Shown here in pieces: positions 1-5,645 of a stretch of DNA of 5,645 bases. Source of the stretch: Amoebophrya sp. A120 (lineage: Eukaryota; Protista; Dinoflagellata); contig CAJINV010000117.1 in the NCBI GenBank assembly GCA_905178155.1, positions 1 through 5,645 on the forward strand. The letters run 5' to 3'. How positions within the stretch are numbered: the first letter of the stretch is position 1; every line of letters starts with the position of its first letter. The notes beneath the pieces are model-generated. The model searched no databases, was not told the DNA's origin, and saw only the letters and a program-made list of their open reading frames with translations. A program made the translations under genes and the position numbers.

Positions 1-19
1 GCGTAGTCGACTTTTTCAG
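1..19 (-). CDS. Putative exon (AEKVDY...), continues past the window edge
   Basis: Removing 20-1189 joins GAT G to CT GAA AAA GTC GAC TAC in frame with exon 1190-1253. Very short, so weakly supported. Confidence 0.45.
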
Positions 20-145
20 CAGGGTATGCATTTGCAAAAGTCGTATCGCACTAGAAATTAGTACTGCGATTGAAAATTTTTGCAGAAGTAAAAATGAAAT
101 TACTATTTAAACTGCAGCAACTGCCCAAAAATGAGTTTTCGGGGG

Positions 146-527
146 GTGTTCCGGGGTATGTTCCGACCCCTGTTCCGGGGTATCAAACACGACCTAACTC
201 GGCCATTTCCTCACGCACCCCCCAAAACATACCCCACACCTGACTCGGCAAAAGTGACACCCGGCCCCGGAGGTCACTTTTCGAGAGTCTGGCCCGACCC
301 CGGACCTGACTGTCGGAAAGTGGCTTTCGGGGCATGGTCTGGGGTGTGTTTCGGGGTGTGTTCTGGGGTGTGTTCCGGGGTATGTTCCGACCCCTGTTCG
401 GGGGTATCCAACACGACCCGAATCGGCAAAAACCTCCTGCACAACTCAAAACATGCTCCCCACCTGACTTCGGAAAAGGAACACCCGACCCCGGGGGCCG
501 CTTTTCAAGAGTCAGGCCCGACCCCGG
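146..527. repeat. Two diverged ~158-bp direct copies (146-303 and 370-527), period 224 bp
   Basis: gtgttccggggtatgttccgacccctgttc at 146 and 370; ggcccgaccccgg at 291 and 515; constant 224-bp offset. Confidence 0.9.
328..387. repeat. 12-bp minisatellite, 5 copies, consensus YGGGGTGTGTTC
   Basis: cggggcatggtc tggggtgtgttt cggggtgtgttc tggggtgtgttc cggggtatgttc. Confidence 0.9.
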
Positions 528-554
528 GGGCCAAAGATTGGCTGCCTATTCATT

Positions 555-931
555 GGGGGGGGGGCGCCCCGCCCAGGGGCGCAGAAACAGGTCCGCGCGG
601 CCTGATTCGGGAGTGCGAAGCGAACTAACAGCCCCCAGGAAGGCCGCGCCCCCCCCTCACTTGGTCGTGGGTAGTCCTGCTGGGGGGGCCCCGCCAAGGG
701 GCGCAGAAACAGGTCTGTGCGCCCTGGTTCGGAGAACAGGCTCCAGGAAGGTGGCCGCGCCCCCCCTCGCATGGTCGGGGGTAGTCCTTTGGGGGGGGCG
801 CCCCGCCCAGGGGCGCAGAAACAGGCCCGCGCGCCCTGGTTCGGGAAAACAACCTCCCGGACGGCCGCGCCCTCGGTTGGTCGTGGGTAGTCCTTTGGGG
901 GGGGCGCCCCGCCCAGGGGCGCAGAAAAAGG
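555..931. repeat. GC-rich tandem repeat, about 3.3 copies of a 106-127 bp unit
   Basis: Units start at 555, 682, 791 and 897 with a poly-G run then (cg)ccccgccMaggggcgcagaaa; the full units end in ggtcgKgggtagtcct. Confidence 0.92.
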
Positions 932-1189
932 CGCATTTTTCCAGGGGGGGCGCCGGCACCACGAGCGCCAAGCTACCCCGTTCTGTCGCAAAAAAAAAAC
1001 CTGCCGCATCATGGGCAAGAAAAGCCGCCGCGGGTGGCCCTTCTTCGCCGCAAGGTCGCAGCGCGGGGACTCTGTCCCCGCGCCATGACCTTGTTTCTCA
1101 TGCAGATTCAGACATAGAAAGCAAAAACTTGTCATGCGACATTGCAGAACTTCTCGCCCCAGCACGATAAAAAACTTTCACTCTGCATA

Positions 1190-1253
1190 CATCCGCAGGG
1201 TCGACTTCAATATCAAAAAGCACTTCATATTGCCCCTGGGCATTCTCCTTCTC
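1190..1253 (-). CDS. Putative exon fragment (EKENAQGQYEVLFDIEVDPAD), 5' part lost in the gap
   Basis: Open, protein-like frame that ends exactly at the TATGCA inverted-repeat end at 1189. Link to the Cys-rich gene across the gap is assumed. Confidence 0.5.
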
Positions 1254-1770
1254 NNNNNNNNNNNNNNNNNNNNNNNNNNNNNNNNNNNNNNNNNNNNNNN
1301 NNNNNNNNNNNNNNNNNNNNNNNNNNNNNNNNNNNNNNNNNNNNNNNNNNNNNNNNNNNNNNNNNNNNNNNNNNNNNNNNNNNNNNNNNNNNNNNNNNNN
1401 NNNNNNNNNNNNNNNNNNNNNNNNNNNNNNNNNNNNNNNNNNNNNNNNNNNNNNNNNNNNNNNNNNNNNNNNNNNNNNNNNNNNNNNNNNNNNNNNNNNN
1501 NNNNNNNNNNNNNNNNNNNNNNNNNNNNNNNNNNNNNNNNNNNNNNNNNNNNNNNNNNNNNNNNNNNNNNNNNNNNNNNNNNNNNNNNNNNNNNNNNNNN
1601 NNNNNNNNNNNNNNNNNNNNNNNNNNNNNNNNNNNNNNNNNNNNNNNNNNNNNNNNNNNNNNNNNNNNNNNNNNNNNNNNNNNNNNNNNNNNNNNNNNNN
1701 NNNNNNNNNNNNNNNNNNNNNNNNNNNNNNNNNNNNNNNNNNNNNNNNNNNNNNNNNNNNNNNNNNNNNN
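1254..1770. other. Assembly gap, 517 N
   Basis: Run of N, directly adjacent to a near-identical 144-bp coding tandem repeat. Confidence 1.
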
Positions 1771-2052
1771 TGAGCCATCGTCTTCGAAGTGATGCCCCGA
1801 GTTGCAAGTGCCTTGCTGACAGCCAGCCGTCGTCTGATGGTCGACGCACGTCGGCGGCCCGGTTAACGGCGTTCCGTGCTCGCATTTGCAGGTATTCACG
1901 ACGCAGTTTTTGGCTGAGCCATCGTCTTCGAAGTGATACCCCGAGTTGCAAGTGCCTTGCTGACAGCCAACCGTCACATCGTCGTTTACGCACGTCGGTG
2001 GCCCCGTTAATGCTGTTCCGTGCTCGCATTTGCAGGTATTCACGACGCAGTT
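1771..2052 (-). repeat. 144-bp (48-aa) coding tandem repeat, about 2 copies visible
   Basis: tgagccatcgtcttcgaagtgat at 1771 and 1915; NCVVNTCKCEHGTxLTGPPTCV...GCQQGTCNSGxHFEDDGS occurs twice. Confidence 0.95.
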
Positions 2053-2272
2053 TGCAGCGTCTAGGTGGTATCCAGCATCGCAATCGTGGCAAATCTCCGT
2101 ATTATGCGAGGTGCAGGCCGCCCCCGTCGCCTCATTGCCGTGCGGGCAAGTGCAGTCGTTCTGCACGCAGTTGTTCCCGCTTTTGTGATAGCCGGCCGTA
2201 GTGCAAGCAGTGCAGATCACCGCATCACGCGAGGTGCAAGCGGTGCCAGTCGCCTCCTCGCCGTGCTCACAT
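1771..2272 (-). CDS. Exon encoding cysteine-rich repeats (N-x-C-x-C-x-H-G...G...C...C...C...GYH...NC), runs into the gap
   Basis: Stop-free frame with four regularly spaced 6-Cys units: CEHGEEATGTAC..., NDCTCPHGNEATGAAC..., and NTCKCEHGT twice. Confidence 0.9.
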
Positions 2273-2277
2273 TTCAA

Positions 2278-2549
2278 TATGAGGGTGTCAGGTTTGAACA
2301 AATCGACAGAGCAGTAAGTCGTAATGCGTAAAGAGGACTGTTTGGGGCTAGAGATACTAGAGCTGCTCAAGTAGCATGACAGAGACAGTCTTCTTTGCCC
2401 ACCAAACAGCGCGGCAAACTACATTTAGGTGTTGCCAACATTTGTGATGCGCCGCTTAGAAATTGGGGGCCAAACTGGTGGCATCATCGTCTTTATGCGT
2501 GACAAAAAAATGCTGCAACTTTGTCGATTCCGCACCTGACGCTTCCATA
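2278..2549 (-). mobile_element. Inverted-repeat intron/introner, 272 bp, degenerate TIR of a distinct family
   Basis: Left tatgagggtgtcaggtttgaacaaatcgacagag vs reverse complement of right end tatggaagcgtcaggtgcggaatcgacaaag; flanks ttcaa/gtgca (2/5). Removing 2273-2549 gives NVC-T-CEHG, matching the repeat consensus. Confidence 0.8.
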
Positions 2550-2588
2550 GTGCAGACATTCTGCGTGCAAGTGCCTGCAGCGGTGTCC
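2550..2588 (-). CDS. 39-nt exon (E)DTAAGTCTQNVC(T)
   Basis: Lies between two TIR elements, is in frame on both sides, and supplies the C-x-x-N-x-C part of the Cys repeat. Confidence 0.82.
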
Positions 2589-2593
2589 TCGTG

Positions 2594-2807
2594 TATCCAA
2601 GACAAAAATTGTGCTCGTGTAACTTTCTTTGGCTGACAGCATCACAAGTTTGCTCTACATGACAGAGAAAACCTGTCATGCGTGGCTCTACATGTGAGGG
2701 AAAACACACATGAAAAGAGGACTTCACGCTTGTCTGGCATGACAGGTGTAACTCTGTTGCATGCTCTGCGTCTGCATTACAGAGTTACACAGTTTTTTTC
2801 TTGCATA
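2594..2807 (-). mobile_element. Inverted-repeat intron/introner, 214 bp, 20-bp TIR
   Basis: tatccaagacaaaaattgtg vs reverse complement tatgcaagaaaaaaactgtg (17/20); flanks tcgtg/tcatg (4/5). Removal gives GYH-E-DT. Confidence 0.85.
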
Positions 2808-2836
2808 TCATGGTATCCGGCTTTATCACAAGGACA
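2808..2836 (-). CDS. 29-nt exon CPCDKAGYH(E)
   Basis: Encodes the C..AGYH motif seen in the downstream repeats; in frame with both neighbours. Confidence 0.82.
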
Positions 2837-2841
2837 CTCAA

Positions 2842-3082
2842 TATGGATTGCAAACATGTCTGGGTGTAATGCCAAAAGTGAATGAGAGACGCACTACAAT
2901 ACGCAGCTATGCATGGCAAATTTTTTGGGTGCCATGTCTTACGTATTCCGCATGGCAAACTGCGTTTTTGCATGACAGGTAAGAGGGCCGTATCGCGCCT
3001 ATGCAACACAGATTCTCGAGTCATGCCAGACAAGCATGACAAACTTGCATTCTTCCAGACCCAGACATTTTTGCATTTGATA
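2842..3082 (-). mobile_element. Inverted-repeat intron/introner, 241 bp, TATCAAATG TIR family
   Basis: Right end 3052-3082 is an intact family TIR; left tatggattgcaaacatgtctgggtgt matches it 21/26; flanks ctcaa/cttca (3/5). Removal of 2837-3082 gives SLK-CPC. Confidence 0.85.
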
Positions 3083-3465
3083 CTTCAAACTGCTCTCAGC
3101 TCCGTCTGCGGCCTCGCAGGGGGCACCGCCGTTTGCCGCGGCTTGGGTCTGCGTGTACTTGCGCGTGAGGGTCTCTCCCGTGCCGGTGCACTGTTGCTCC
3201 AACTCCGCGTCCGAAGCTGCTACACTCCATGACCCCGTGCAGTCTTGCGGGGGCTCCATTTCGGGCACGCCACCGGGACGGCCGAACCGCACGTAGGAGG
3301 TGAGGAGAAGTGCGATTGGTGTCGCATCGTTGAACACGCAGCTGCCGTCGTCACAAACCAGTCCGGGCACGGTTTCGAAAAACTCGGGTTTGTATTGCCT
3401 GTCCAACCTTTTAGGCTCGCATTTGCTGTACAGAATGCACGCGCCAGTCAAATAGTTTGCCAAGC
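3083..3465 (-). CDS. 383-nt exon containing a thrombospondin type 1 (TSP1)-like module
   Basis: Stop-free frame. PQDCTGSWS...C...TLTRKYTQTQAAANGGAPC resembles the DC.GxWS...R...NGG.xC TSP1/spondin pattern (recognised by eye, no HMM run). Bounded by TIR elements on both sides. Confidence 0.85.
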
Positions 3466-3470
3466 AGTCC

Positions 3471-3753
3471 TATCACATGCAAAAATGTCTGGGTCTGGAA
3501 GAGTTCTAGATTTATGGTCATGCATATCTTAAATAACATGAGCCATGATGTCTGTGATGCATGCCGCAGCATCAGAGATTTTTAGAAAGCTTTGTGATAT
3601 AATCTCTACCGCATGAGAGATGCCCTCGTCCTTAAGTGGGACTACCAGCCCGGCCCCTATTGCGGGTCATGCAATACAAAGTGTTTTGGAATCTTCCACG
3701 GACAGCATCACAAGTTTAGAATCTTCCAGACCCAGACACTTTTGCATTTGATA
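3471..3753 (-). mobile_element. MITE-like intron/introner, 283 bp, TATCAAATG TIR family, 5-bp TSD agtcc
   Basis: TIRs 3471-3502 and 3722-3753 match 30/32; perfect agtcc at 3466-3470 and 3754-3758. Removal gives KED-CLANY. Confidence 0.93.
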
Positions 3754-3769
3754 AGTCCTCTTTCAGTAC
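3754..3769 (-). CDS. 16-nt micro-exon VLKED(C)
   Basis: In frame with 3083-3465 after TSD-aware removal and with 5096-5172 through the ctcca direct repeat. Upstream boundary has an alternative. Confidence 0.6.
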
Positions 3770-3774
3770 CTCCA

Positions 3775-5095
3775 TAACAGAAAAAAGCGTTCGCGTAAAG
3801 AACGGAATTTGTCATGAAGCGGAATGCATCACAAAAGAACGCGTCACAAAAATTGCCATGCACAGCATGTGCCTCCAATCTGTGAACATCAAAACCGTTC
3901 TCGCGGTAGGCGGCTACCACTCCCGGTGGCAGCGCCTTCGCGGCATTCCTTCGATGCACCGAGACAACCGAAGCTACGACTTCGAGCCGTAATAGGCCCG
4001 ACTCAGACTACATTATACTTCTCACACGAGCCTGAGCTCGTTGCTCAACCTCAATCCTCATTCGCCTCTGTCCCTACAGAGGCGTCGACTGGACCTGCAA
4101 GCTGTTTCTCGAACAGCTACCCCGAGCTTGCTTGCTTTCCACCAACGCACCGCGTTGGCACTTGTGCGAGCTTGTTGCAGTTCCCCGCTAGCTTGCACCA
4201 CCTGAGTGAAGTTTGTTAAGCGCCCCAGGGAGCAGATTCGAAATCTGTGCTACAGCTATTAAATAGCTTCTTACGAGAAACCTAATGTCGATCCTGAATT
4301 AAGATCAGGAACCTTTGGGCGCGTGAACCCAGAATTTGTAGAAGACCCCACGCTGATGAGATCTTCTCCACCACAGTGTAGAACTTCTTATGAGGACCCC
4401 AAGCAAAGATCTTAGTGAAACCAAGACCGTGACCAGATCCCCAGAAGATCTTTCTTCTCCAATCAGTGCGAGGGGACTTTTGCCCTTTCTAGCGCCTTGC
4501 GCTATTCTGGCACTCCAAGCGCGGCATAGCCACACAGGGAGGCGACTACAGCCCTGAGCATGGGTGGCTCGTCCGCTGCTCTTATGCAGGGACCTACGGG
4601 GGAAGGGGGCTAGTAGTTCTTACCTTTCCCACTTGGGGAATGGTTGGGCTCATAACTCTGTGGACGTCTCAAGCGTCAGGGACTAGGCATGCTCACTAGC
4701 ATGCTGTCCGAAGATAGAGAACAGAGTTACTATCTAAGCACCTACCTAGTAGGTACTACGGAGAGAAAGGGCTTTTTATTCTTCCAGCTACTGGCCCGTA
4801 GACCAGAAGCCATTCTGGCACTGTTGTGTGTACGTTGTTACCCTTGGTATGGATATCATCCTGTCACCATCATAGTGGTGTAGTGTGTGTGACCCATGTG
4901 GTCCTATTCATCCTAGTACCGTGATCCTACTCGTGTGACCCCTCTAGGCTAGTATTTGATCGTCTGCCTATCGGTATACTTAGAGCCTATCTCTTCGATC
5001 TCATTGATCTCAGGAGCATGCTAGCAACTGCTCTAGTCCGAGACAGGTTGCTGCGCAATCTGTGAACATCAAAACCGTTAACGTTAACACTTTTT
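3775..5095 (-). other. Intron flanked by 5-nt direct repeat ctcca, weak terminal IR, enlarged by a nested insertion
   Basis: ctcca at 3770-3774 and 5096-5100; agaaaaaagcgtt...aacgg vs reverse complement agaaaaagtgtt...aacgg; removal joins RLE-VLK in frame; 141 bp remain once the nested insertion and one 24-mer are removed. Confidence 0.6.
3876..5079. mobile_element. Unclassified 1156-bp insertion (3900-5055) between perfect 24-bp direct repeats
   Basis: caatctgtgaacatcaaaaccgtt at 3876-3899 and 5056-5079. No TIR, no TG..CA ends, no poly(A), no recognisable protein. Confidence 0.7.
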
Positions 5096-5172
5096 CTCCA
5101 ATCGCTTACCATCCTTTCGCTTACCGTCGGTTTGATATTGCAGCATAAACTCACAGCAGTTGTACGAGGGCG
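5096..5172 (-). CDS. 77-nt exon (P)PSYNCCEFMLQYQTDGKRKDGKRLE
   Basis: Open frame continuous with 5582-5606 after removing 5173-5581. Confidence 0.7.
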
Positions 5173-5177
5173 GCGGG

Positions 5178-5581
5178 TATCAAATGTAAAAATGTCTGGG
5201 TCTGGAAGAATGCAAGATTTGTGATGCAGGTTTTCCAGATAGCATGGCTGATGGCACTTAGGATGAAGGGGGCAGTCCTCAACCAATACACATTGGAAGA
5301 GGGGACCCCAACCCCCTGGGGGTGAAGAATCGAGGGTGGCATTGCCCTACAGAAAATGACCCATGAGGCAGGTTTTCCATGACCCATGAGGTCTGGAATG
5401 TGAGACCCAGCATGACAGATTTTGTGAGGTCTCTGTCATGCCTTTCCTGCATGAGAAACTCCCTCTCAACTGGGTCAAAAGCGGACAGCTTTTGGTACTC
5501 ACGCAACACAGATTTTTGCATCATTCAGATTTAGCATGACAAGTTCTAACCTTCCAGACCCAGACATTTTTACATTTGATA
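5178..5581 (-). mobile_element. MITE-like intron/introner, 404 bp, perfect 31-bp TIR, 5-bp TSD gcggg
   Basis: tatcaaatgtaaaaatgtctgggtctggaag at 5178-5208 and its exact reverse complement at 5551-5581; gcggg at 5173-5177 and 5582-5586. Confidence 0.95.
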
Positions 5582-5606
5582 GCGGGTCAAGCGTTCGATA
5601 AACGTG
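5582..5606 (-). CDS. ~20-25 nt micro-exon HVYRTLDP
   Basis: Sits between two TIR ends; frame joins to PPSYNCC. Confidence 0.6.
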
Positions 5607-5645
5607 TATCAACCGCAAATATGTCGTCTGGGTCCTCCACCTCTG
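5607..5645 (-). mobile_element. One end of a further TATCAA-family intron/introner, truncated by the window edge
   Basis: tatcaaccgcaaatatgtcgtctgggtc aligns to family TIR tatcaaatgcaaaaatgt---ctgggtc. Confidence 0.65.

Follow-up and report, generated by a model that had tools for sequence, protein, structure and literature searches.

Introner elements of Amoebophrya sp. A120 and a likely fixed offset of their splice sites from the TAT and ATA ends

The window analysed here is a 5,645-nucleotide (nt) stretch of DNA from the dinoflagellate Amoebophrya sp. A120 (contig CAJINV010000117.1, positions 1 to 5,645). It holds a minus-strand gene of cysteine-rich repeats, interrupted by introner elements with terminal inverted repeats (TIRs) that begin with TAT and end with ATA, flanked by a 5-bp target-site duplication (TSD). 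Judged by their letters, these are the introner elements already described in A120. What is likely new is the register in which they are cut: probably one nt before TAT and four nt after ATA, even where the flanking repeat has fully decayed. Our reading, to which we give a probability of about 0.6, is that 5-bp-TSD inverted-repeat transposons inserted into exons and are removed by a modified spliceosome at these offsets. Its basis is the anatomy of the elements, their insertion in either orientation, a frame rule of 5 modulo 3, and the loss of one element plus 5 nt in one contig.

The host gene and its elements

Six elements reading TAT...ATA are present, and all interrupt the one minus-strand gene. 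The arm and flank identities counted in the first-pass annotation are reproduced for each. The youngest, at 5178-5581, has arms matching at 31/31 positions and a duplication matching at 5/5 (predicted intron 5174-5582). Two belong to the main family: 3471-3753 (30/32; perfect 5-bp duplication, 5/5) and 2842-3082 (21/26, the common mismatched arm pair; 3/5; predicted intron 2838-3083). The element at 2594-2807 has arms of 17/20 and flanks of 4/5 (predicted intron 2590-2808). Two old elements have gapped arms and flanks of 2/5. One, at 2278-2549, lies between TGCAC and TTGAA, and removal of the predicted intron 2274-2550 gives NVCKCEHG, as in two later repeats. The other, at 25-1189, has a predicted intron at 21-1190 (starting GT), and its interior is expanded by GC-rich tandem repeats, which fill 141-932 (12-nt, 106-nt and 224-nt spacings); both ends are kept.

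A seventh element on the same strand, at 3773-5108, is decayed and was overlooked earlier; it was found from a contig junction and by alignment. Its transcript ends read TAA...ATG between flanks GATGG and GAGGT. The claim that all elements keep TAT/ATA holds for the six listed, which were chosen that way, and fails for this one. Once a nested 1156-nt insert is set aside, its full length can be aligned to a TAT...ATA element of locus L020, in a close relative introduced below (score 122; best of 200 shuffles 59). The insert (3876-5079, unstranded) is bounded by exact 24-nt direct repeats at 3876-3899 and 5056-5079. Its longest open frame is 105 amino acids, and it has no clear match among the fetched related loci. 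The length of the duplication suggests a retroelement-type insertion. An eighth minus-strand element, recognised by its arm match (family D10), shows its transcript 3' arm at 5607-5645 and continues beyond the window end. Profile matches to three window elements reach E<=5e-47, and sequencing depth on the element arms is very high, marking a repeated family.

All exons lie on the minus strand. In transcript order they are a short exon at 5583-5602 (YRTLDP, as in P0001, an annotated protein named as Amoebophrya sp. A120); an exon at 5110-5173 (PPSYNCCEFMLQYQTDGKRKD), open in frame and joined at its 3' end by the contig; a 14-nt mini-exon at 3755-3768, present in the same probable-RNA contig; an exon at 3084-3466, 60% of whose length is 100% identical to P0001 and which contigs also cover; two predicted exons of 29 nt (2809-2837) and 39 nt (2551-2589); and the Cys-rich repeat exon at 1771-2273 (CxC.HG repeats, 144-nt tandem unit), covered by probable-RNA contigs. 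An exon fragment at 1190-1253 lies beyond an assembly gap (1254-1770, N). Positions 1771-5600 minus the elements, each with 5 extra nt, form a stop-free frame of 350 amino acids.

A search of representatives at E<=0.001 returned 640 unnamed Cys-repeat homologs, with no copy of the host exon itself among them. The best homolog of the host protein, P0002, bears an M12B-like peptidase domain. A Pfam search of two host exons and P0001 found no match. The host (1771-2271 and 3084-3240) is a long Cys-rich repeat protein, part of which resembles thrombospondin; it has no Pfam match. Annotated P0001 reads YRTLDPQDCLANY. Between 5581 and 3471 it omits sequence (at 3755-3768 and 5110-5173) for which both the contig and the open frame argue, and it is short of 33 nt of mini-exon sequence at the host locus. 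Faulty alignment thus probably lies behind the public gene model. The register described below would mend such models, restoring to P0001 those 33 nt.

Position of the splice junctions

The first-pass annotation held that each element must be removed together with 5 nt. Across 1771-5600, removing 2, 5 or 8 extra nt with each of the six elements gives 0 stops, so the frame sets the offset only modulo 3; for element 25-1189, just 24 nt of downstream exon lie within the window. The exact value of 5 comes from a probable-RNA contig at one element. Two runs guessed to be RNA cover the exons and have zero depth at 3851-4500. No run recorded as RNA was listed as containing the sequence, and all transcript evidence on the junctions comes from a single contig (depth 3.3) of a run guessed to be RNA. 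This contig matches 3237-3471 exactly, and its 18 loose letters fall first on 3760-3768/9 and then on 5110/1-5118, a 9-mer unique on the plus strand of the window. Its joins therefore remove 3471-3753 with exactly one 5-nt copy and also remove a further intron, that of the seventh element, at 3769-5109 (GT..GG) or 3770-5110 (GG..AG). At that junction the contig reads GATGT, taking 3-4 nt from the upstream copy and 1-2 nt from the downstream copy, five in total. Splicing with non-canonical ends is supported by this contig for two window introns and predicted from the frame for the others. Among the other sequencing runs, raw-read run X8 matched another element copy only, and X3 and X4 had nothing on 3072-3488. 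A placement of the seventh intron at 3774-5147 (flanks 4/5, in frame) was ruled out by the contig, so frame and a near-repeat can mislead.

The elements might instead be lost from DNA, or the genes be dead copies. TA-bearing inverted ends resemble those of ciliate eliminated sequences, and the joined contig is RNA by guess. We nevertheless regard both ideas as very improbable. Contigs of run X5, which covers all 30 bins and is of unrecorded kind, read through element borders at 2024-2646, 3059-3499 and 3728-4495 without any differing letters; no precise-excision joint occurs among the 15 joints listed of 289; the exon flanks stay open and near-identical to orthologs; and the available text of PMC7789003 reports such introns as validated by RNA-seq.

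To describe the cut, let j be the number of nt of the upstream duplication copy retained in the mRNA. The register 1+4, exon|N-TAT...ATA-NNNN|exon, corresponds to j=4; it makes the T of TAT intron position +2 and the first A of ATA position -7. Under it, 0/7 window introns have canonical U2 ends (GT/GC...AG). Further copies were taken from a pattern scan of 135 loci (301 kb) out of about 300 estimated stretches, with 26/64 parts scanned. These loci belong to a close relative, whose exons in the main matches show 82-93% identity to A120 protein P0152 and 99-100% to P0154. We examined all 12 introns in the ortholog-matched parts of two loci, L076 and L017, comprising eight TAT...ATA elements and four GT-AG introns. 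Two old L076 elements came to light through protein alignment, not through their repeats.

These two old elements are the most restrictive. L076 338-538 has flanks of 0/5 and gapped arms, and it matches the A120 ortholog at j=4 only, with a stop at j<=3. L076 972-1167, with flanks of 2/5 and ends that now read GT...AG, also matches its A120 ortholog at j=4 only. A second homolog, P0153, shares the ortholog's residues. L017 778-1081 requires j>=4, through a Lys found in the seven top homologs; L076 1937-2107 requires j=3-4 and L017 2305-2560 requires j>=1. Two of the eight elements are uninformative. In the window, the contig junction of the seventh intron requires j=3-4, element 2278-2549 requires j>=3, and the element at 5607 requires j>=4 if its unseen upstream exon obeys the 5-nt rule. 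Of the nine informative junctions, 8 are compatible with j=4, 5 with j=3 and 4 with j=5. The orthologs argue strongly for the 1+4 register.

The earlier idea of a 5-nt ruler survives in corrected form. A fixed total of 5 nt is counted from the TAT and ATA ends whatever the terminal dinucleotides or the repeat identity, as L076 338-538 illustrates. The claims that a stem sets the sites, that ATA is invariant and that the whole downstream copy is intronic are not supported. The last of these, an intron starting at TAT and taking the entire downstream copy (j=5), keeps the frame and has the highest summed codon score, by a small margin. It also keeps a conserved Cys at 2273-2277 that had been offered as its proof; that Cys survives at j=3, 4 or 5 and therefore does not show that the entire downstream copy is intronic. 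With the seventh-intron contig and all four informative L076 junctions against it, j=5 is largely refuted and seems to us very improbable.

Differences between the two duplication copies bear on the register as well. Among 138 oriented stop-free elements, 9 differ at duplication position 5, with G in the upstream copy (intron +1) in 7 and in the downstream copy in 0 (p=0.016, uncorrected, one of 10 tests). G at +1 occurs in 15/30 elements with imperfect duplications vs 29/108 with perfect ones (p=0.026). Gain of AG at -2/-1 was not seen in the imperfect duplications (1/30), and canonical GT/GC...AG ends occur in 6/108 perfect-TSD elements. Intron phases under j=4 are 65/37/36 (p=0.003), the usual phase-0 excess, which target choice could also cause. 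The earlier statement that dinucleotides do not set the sites is right in that GT-AG is not needed; T is nonetheless always at +2, and +1 drifts to G.

Several points count against a single fixed cut. L076 1298-1559 fits its ortholog at j<=3 only, and j=4 costs a Lys-to-Arg change in a protein that is 85-93% identical. Summed codon scores over registers do not favour j=4 over j=5. Most of the register evidence compares a relative's DNA with annotated proteins by homology and does not come from cDNA. The window contig cannot separate j=3 from j=4, and it is perhaps not independent of the annotation that gave P0001. The junctions might instead vary within the duplication, any frame-keeping register being usable, and the legend of Fig. 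3 in PMC7789003 calls the sites variable. Such variation would accommodate L076 1298-1559; moreover, in 16/30 mismatched duplications the differences are synonymous whichever register is used, which would be expected were both copies exonic at times, although transition bias alone could yield about half synonymous differences. Variable cutting does not explain why two old introns permit j=4 only, one with a stop at j<=3, or why G at duplication position 5 is directional, and we consider it improbable.

Copies in a close relative and the conservation of the ends

Element statistics are drawn from the relative's loci together with the window. Calling on inner arm positions only gave 148 family elements. 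A perfect direct repeat of 5 nt flanks 125 of them, against 1 with 4 nt and 0 with 6 nt, so the duplication is not due to chance. When elements were called without regard to family and with the first three bases ignored, 227 had a perfect duplication. Of these, 194 were TAT/TAT, and many of the remaining 33 resemble chance registers. The flanks of 40/148 elements could be phased independently: 33 pairs need 5 modulo 3, 1 falls in another class and 6 are strand-discordant. The elements are short, non-coding and of high copy number, with TIRs and a TSD of fixed length, as in miniature inverted-repeat transposable elements (MITEs) and other non-autonomous TIR transposons.

Orientation could be assigned to 87 of the 148, of which 76 have a clear internal direction, and these are inserted both ways (44 vs 32, p=0.21). 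We saw no GT or AG bias in the duplication in the 87 oriented elements, nor any target bias in them. AG at duplication positions 4-5 occurs in 0/87 (about 4 expected), yet it is present in window element 2842; this may be chance. Differences between duplication copies in L006, L016, L027, L044, L057 and L079 include several C/T changes in or beside CG, as CpG methylation would give.

TAT and ATA had been said to be kept above the inner repeat. The comparison drops ends that exactly match the search pattern, and inner counts are summed without the subfamily-variable positions 4-7, 14, 15 and 31. The 5' TAT shows 0 changes in 138 positions vs 28/966 at 21 inner positions (p=0.017), and the 3' ATA shows 3 in 159 vs 28/1113 (p=0.43); the claim stands for the former and not for the latter. 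Elements called without the first bases of both ends have a non-TAT end in 19/258 cases. Four of the 19 have clearly coding, stop-free flanks (one of the four strand calls is weak). In each of these it is the 3' end that departs from the motif, and the A at -7 is still present. The remaining 15 are ambiguous, non-coding or wrong calls. The seventh window element likewise keeps A at -7. Terminal conservation across families is also expected from the needs of a transposase, so conserved ends are not by themselves evidence for a role in splicing.

The six window elements had been arranged as a decay series in which TIRs and TSDs erode together. This is so loosely: TIR and TSD identity are weakly correlated (rho 0.18, n=148; rho 0.21, n=264), and the mismatched arm pair of 2842 recurs in 11/125 elements whose TSD is perfect. 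Repeat identity makes a poor clock.

Mechanism of removal and relation to known introns

In our preferred reading, a non-coding inverted-repeat transposon would insert into an exon and duplicate 5 bp. The 1+4 register would leave 4+1 nt of the duplication in the mRNA and thereby restore the gene exactly at insertion for any target letters. The palindromic end would supply U at +2 and A at +3 of the 5' splice site, with any +1 tolerated and G best. The 3' site would be located by its distance from ATA and not by an AG. The first A of ATA, at -7, is a candidate branch point. Arm pairing may merely help to bring the ends together, in place of U1 small nuclear RNA (snRNA). Two observations favour a spliceosome, likely a relaxed one that reads linear end motifs: +1 drifts to G, and one old copy has turned GT-AG.

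The first-pass annotation had the splice sites set by a stem. With the offset corrected, this becomes an RNA stem that fixes the same 1+4 register and is cut by a structure-reading endonuclease and joined by a ligase, without a spliceosome, as proposed for euglenid introns. AG is not needed, both orientations occur and U1 is undetected in A120, all of which would suit such a process, as would predicted folds that pair the terminal UAU/AUA in 2278 (z -1.09) and 2594 (z -3.51). Against it, the arms have no excess of G.U over A.C pairs in transcript orientation (100 vs 84, p=0.27; also 59 vs 60), and the oldest L076 intron folds no better than shuffles (z +0.51), so stem-setting is unproven. The seventh element breaks 2/3 terminal pairs as Watson-Crick pairs. 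The +1 drift to G, and L076 972-1167 having become GT-AG in the 1+4 register, are what selection by a spliceosome would be expected to produce. We consider stem-directed cutting unlikely.

A more specific form of spliceosomal removal, tentative and somewhat doubtful, is that a U1-less spliceosome reads the palindromic end twice, as an N|UAU 5' site and as a branch A 7 nt before an AG-free 3' site. Every insertion, whatever its orientation and target, would then arrive as a perfect intron, and one rule would cover the tens of thousands of non-canonical introns now called 'variable'. Fixed branch-to-3'-site distances occur in Giardia and Trichomonas, and yeast has a 7-nt threshold. Yarrowia has a very short branch-to-3'-site distance (PMC4022394, available text). 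A branch point at -7 is perhaps correct, and some data sit poorly with it. Variable letters precede the -7 A, which leaves no evident pairing with U2. One of the four canonical L017 introns lacks A at -7, and among canonical introns called de novo A is at -7 in 20/55, in a noisy calling that gave wrong 3' ends for both known L017 introns it called.

The literature, cited here from the portions available, gives the A120 system much of this anatomy. A120 introners have arms of TAT, 7 nt and AAA, with 3-5-nt repeats and hairpins, are about 250-300 nt long and form repeated families (Farhat et al. 2021, PMC7789003). The same source sees 'no clear splicing signature' and calls the splice positions variable. 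It recovered every snRNA except U1 and an almost full set of spliceosomal proteins from A120, and it counts about two thirds of A120 introns as non-canonical, with recognition an open question. Its Table S4 lists nine predominant A120 non-canonical motifs, all N-T, and nine from strain A25, all TT, on which the available text does not comment. The N-T motifs of A120 fit T at +2; this bias could partly reflect aligner preference, a further caution for our reading. In A25 the elements end in TTA, yet the predominant sites are TT-, again with T at +2 and A at +3. PMC12130899 assigns most of the A120 families seen to TIR DNA, superfamily unknown, and gives them duplication lengths of 2-5 by automated calling (21/58 A120 rows). 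In annotated A120 families gt and at are commoner than gc and ga (e.g. 147/101/34/27 of 547), which also fits T at +2.

The window elements share with the published A120 introners the arms of TAT, 7 looser nt and AAA (old copies 2278 and 3773 deviate), short direct repeats, non-canonical ends, size and families, and a host exon is identical to an A120-named protein. They differ in having a single 5-bp duplication, a fixed 1+4 cut, T at +2 and drift to G at +1, where 3-5-nt repeats and variable sites were published. The fixed cut is not stated in the available parts of the literature searched, mostly non-subscription (including PMC7789003, PMC11282704, PMC11453091 and PMC9860276); Figures 3, S19, S21-S23 and S25 of PMC7789003 may already show it.

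TIR-DNA introners of Micromonas, Aureococcus, Symbiodinium and Polarella (PMC11282704, PMC9860276, bioRxiv 2020.10.14.339549) are also non-autonomous transposons; removal with one duplication's worth restores the gene, and the splice site comes partly from the duplication. They depend on GT/GC/GA and AG supplied by element or target, whereas the window elements need no AG, split the 5' dinucleotide between target (+1) and element (+2), and show no target bias. Euglenid nonconventional introns (PMC11282704) also have terminal inverted repeats, duplication-like flanks and non-canonical ends at a fixed offset from the pairing. Theirs is CAG/CTG at +4-6/-8-6, with circular excision products; the window elements end in TAT/ATA, at +2-4/-7-5, and lack the CAG/CTG pairing. 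The non-canonical U2 introns of Fritillaria borealis (PMC11282704, PMC7789003) are likewise MITE-derived and handled by an adapted spliceosome, with defined AG-AC/AG-AT ends where the window elements have ends free except for +2 T.

If correct, the 1+4 register would convert 'no clear signature' into a testable rule without GT-AG, consisting of an invariant +2 T, a free +1 with a drift to G and a 3' site counted from ATA. It would explain harmless insertion in any orientation and target, and it names a single nucleotide, the -7 A, as candidate branch point. It also offers a route from old copies to GT-AG introns, with one example so far (L076 972-1167). Separately, two of the four canonical introns of L017, a peroxisomal beta-oxidation gene, begin GTAT (2842 and 3556), the same letters as an element under 1+4, and these could be old elements that have lost the 3' arm.

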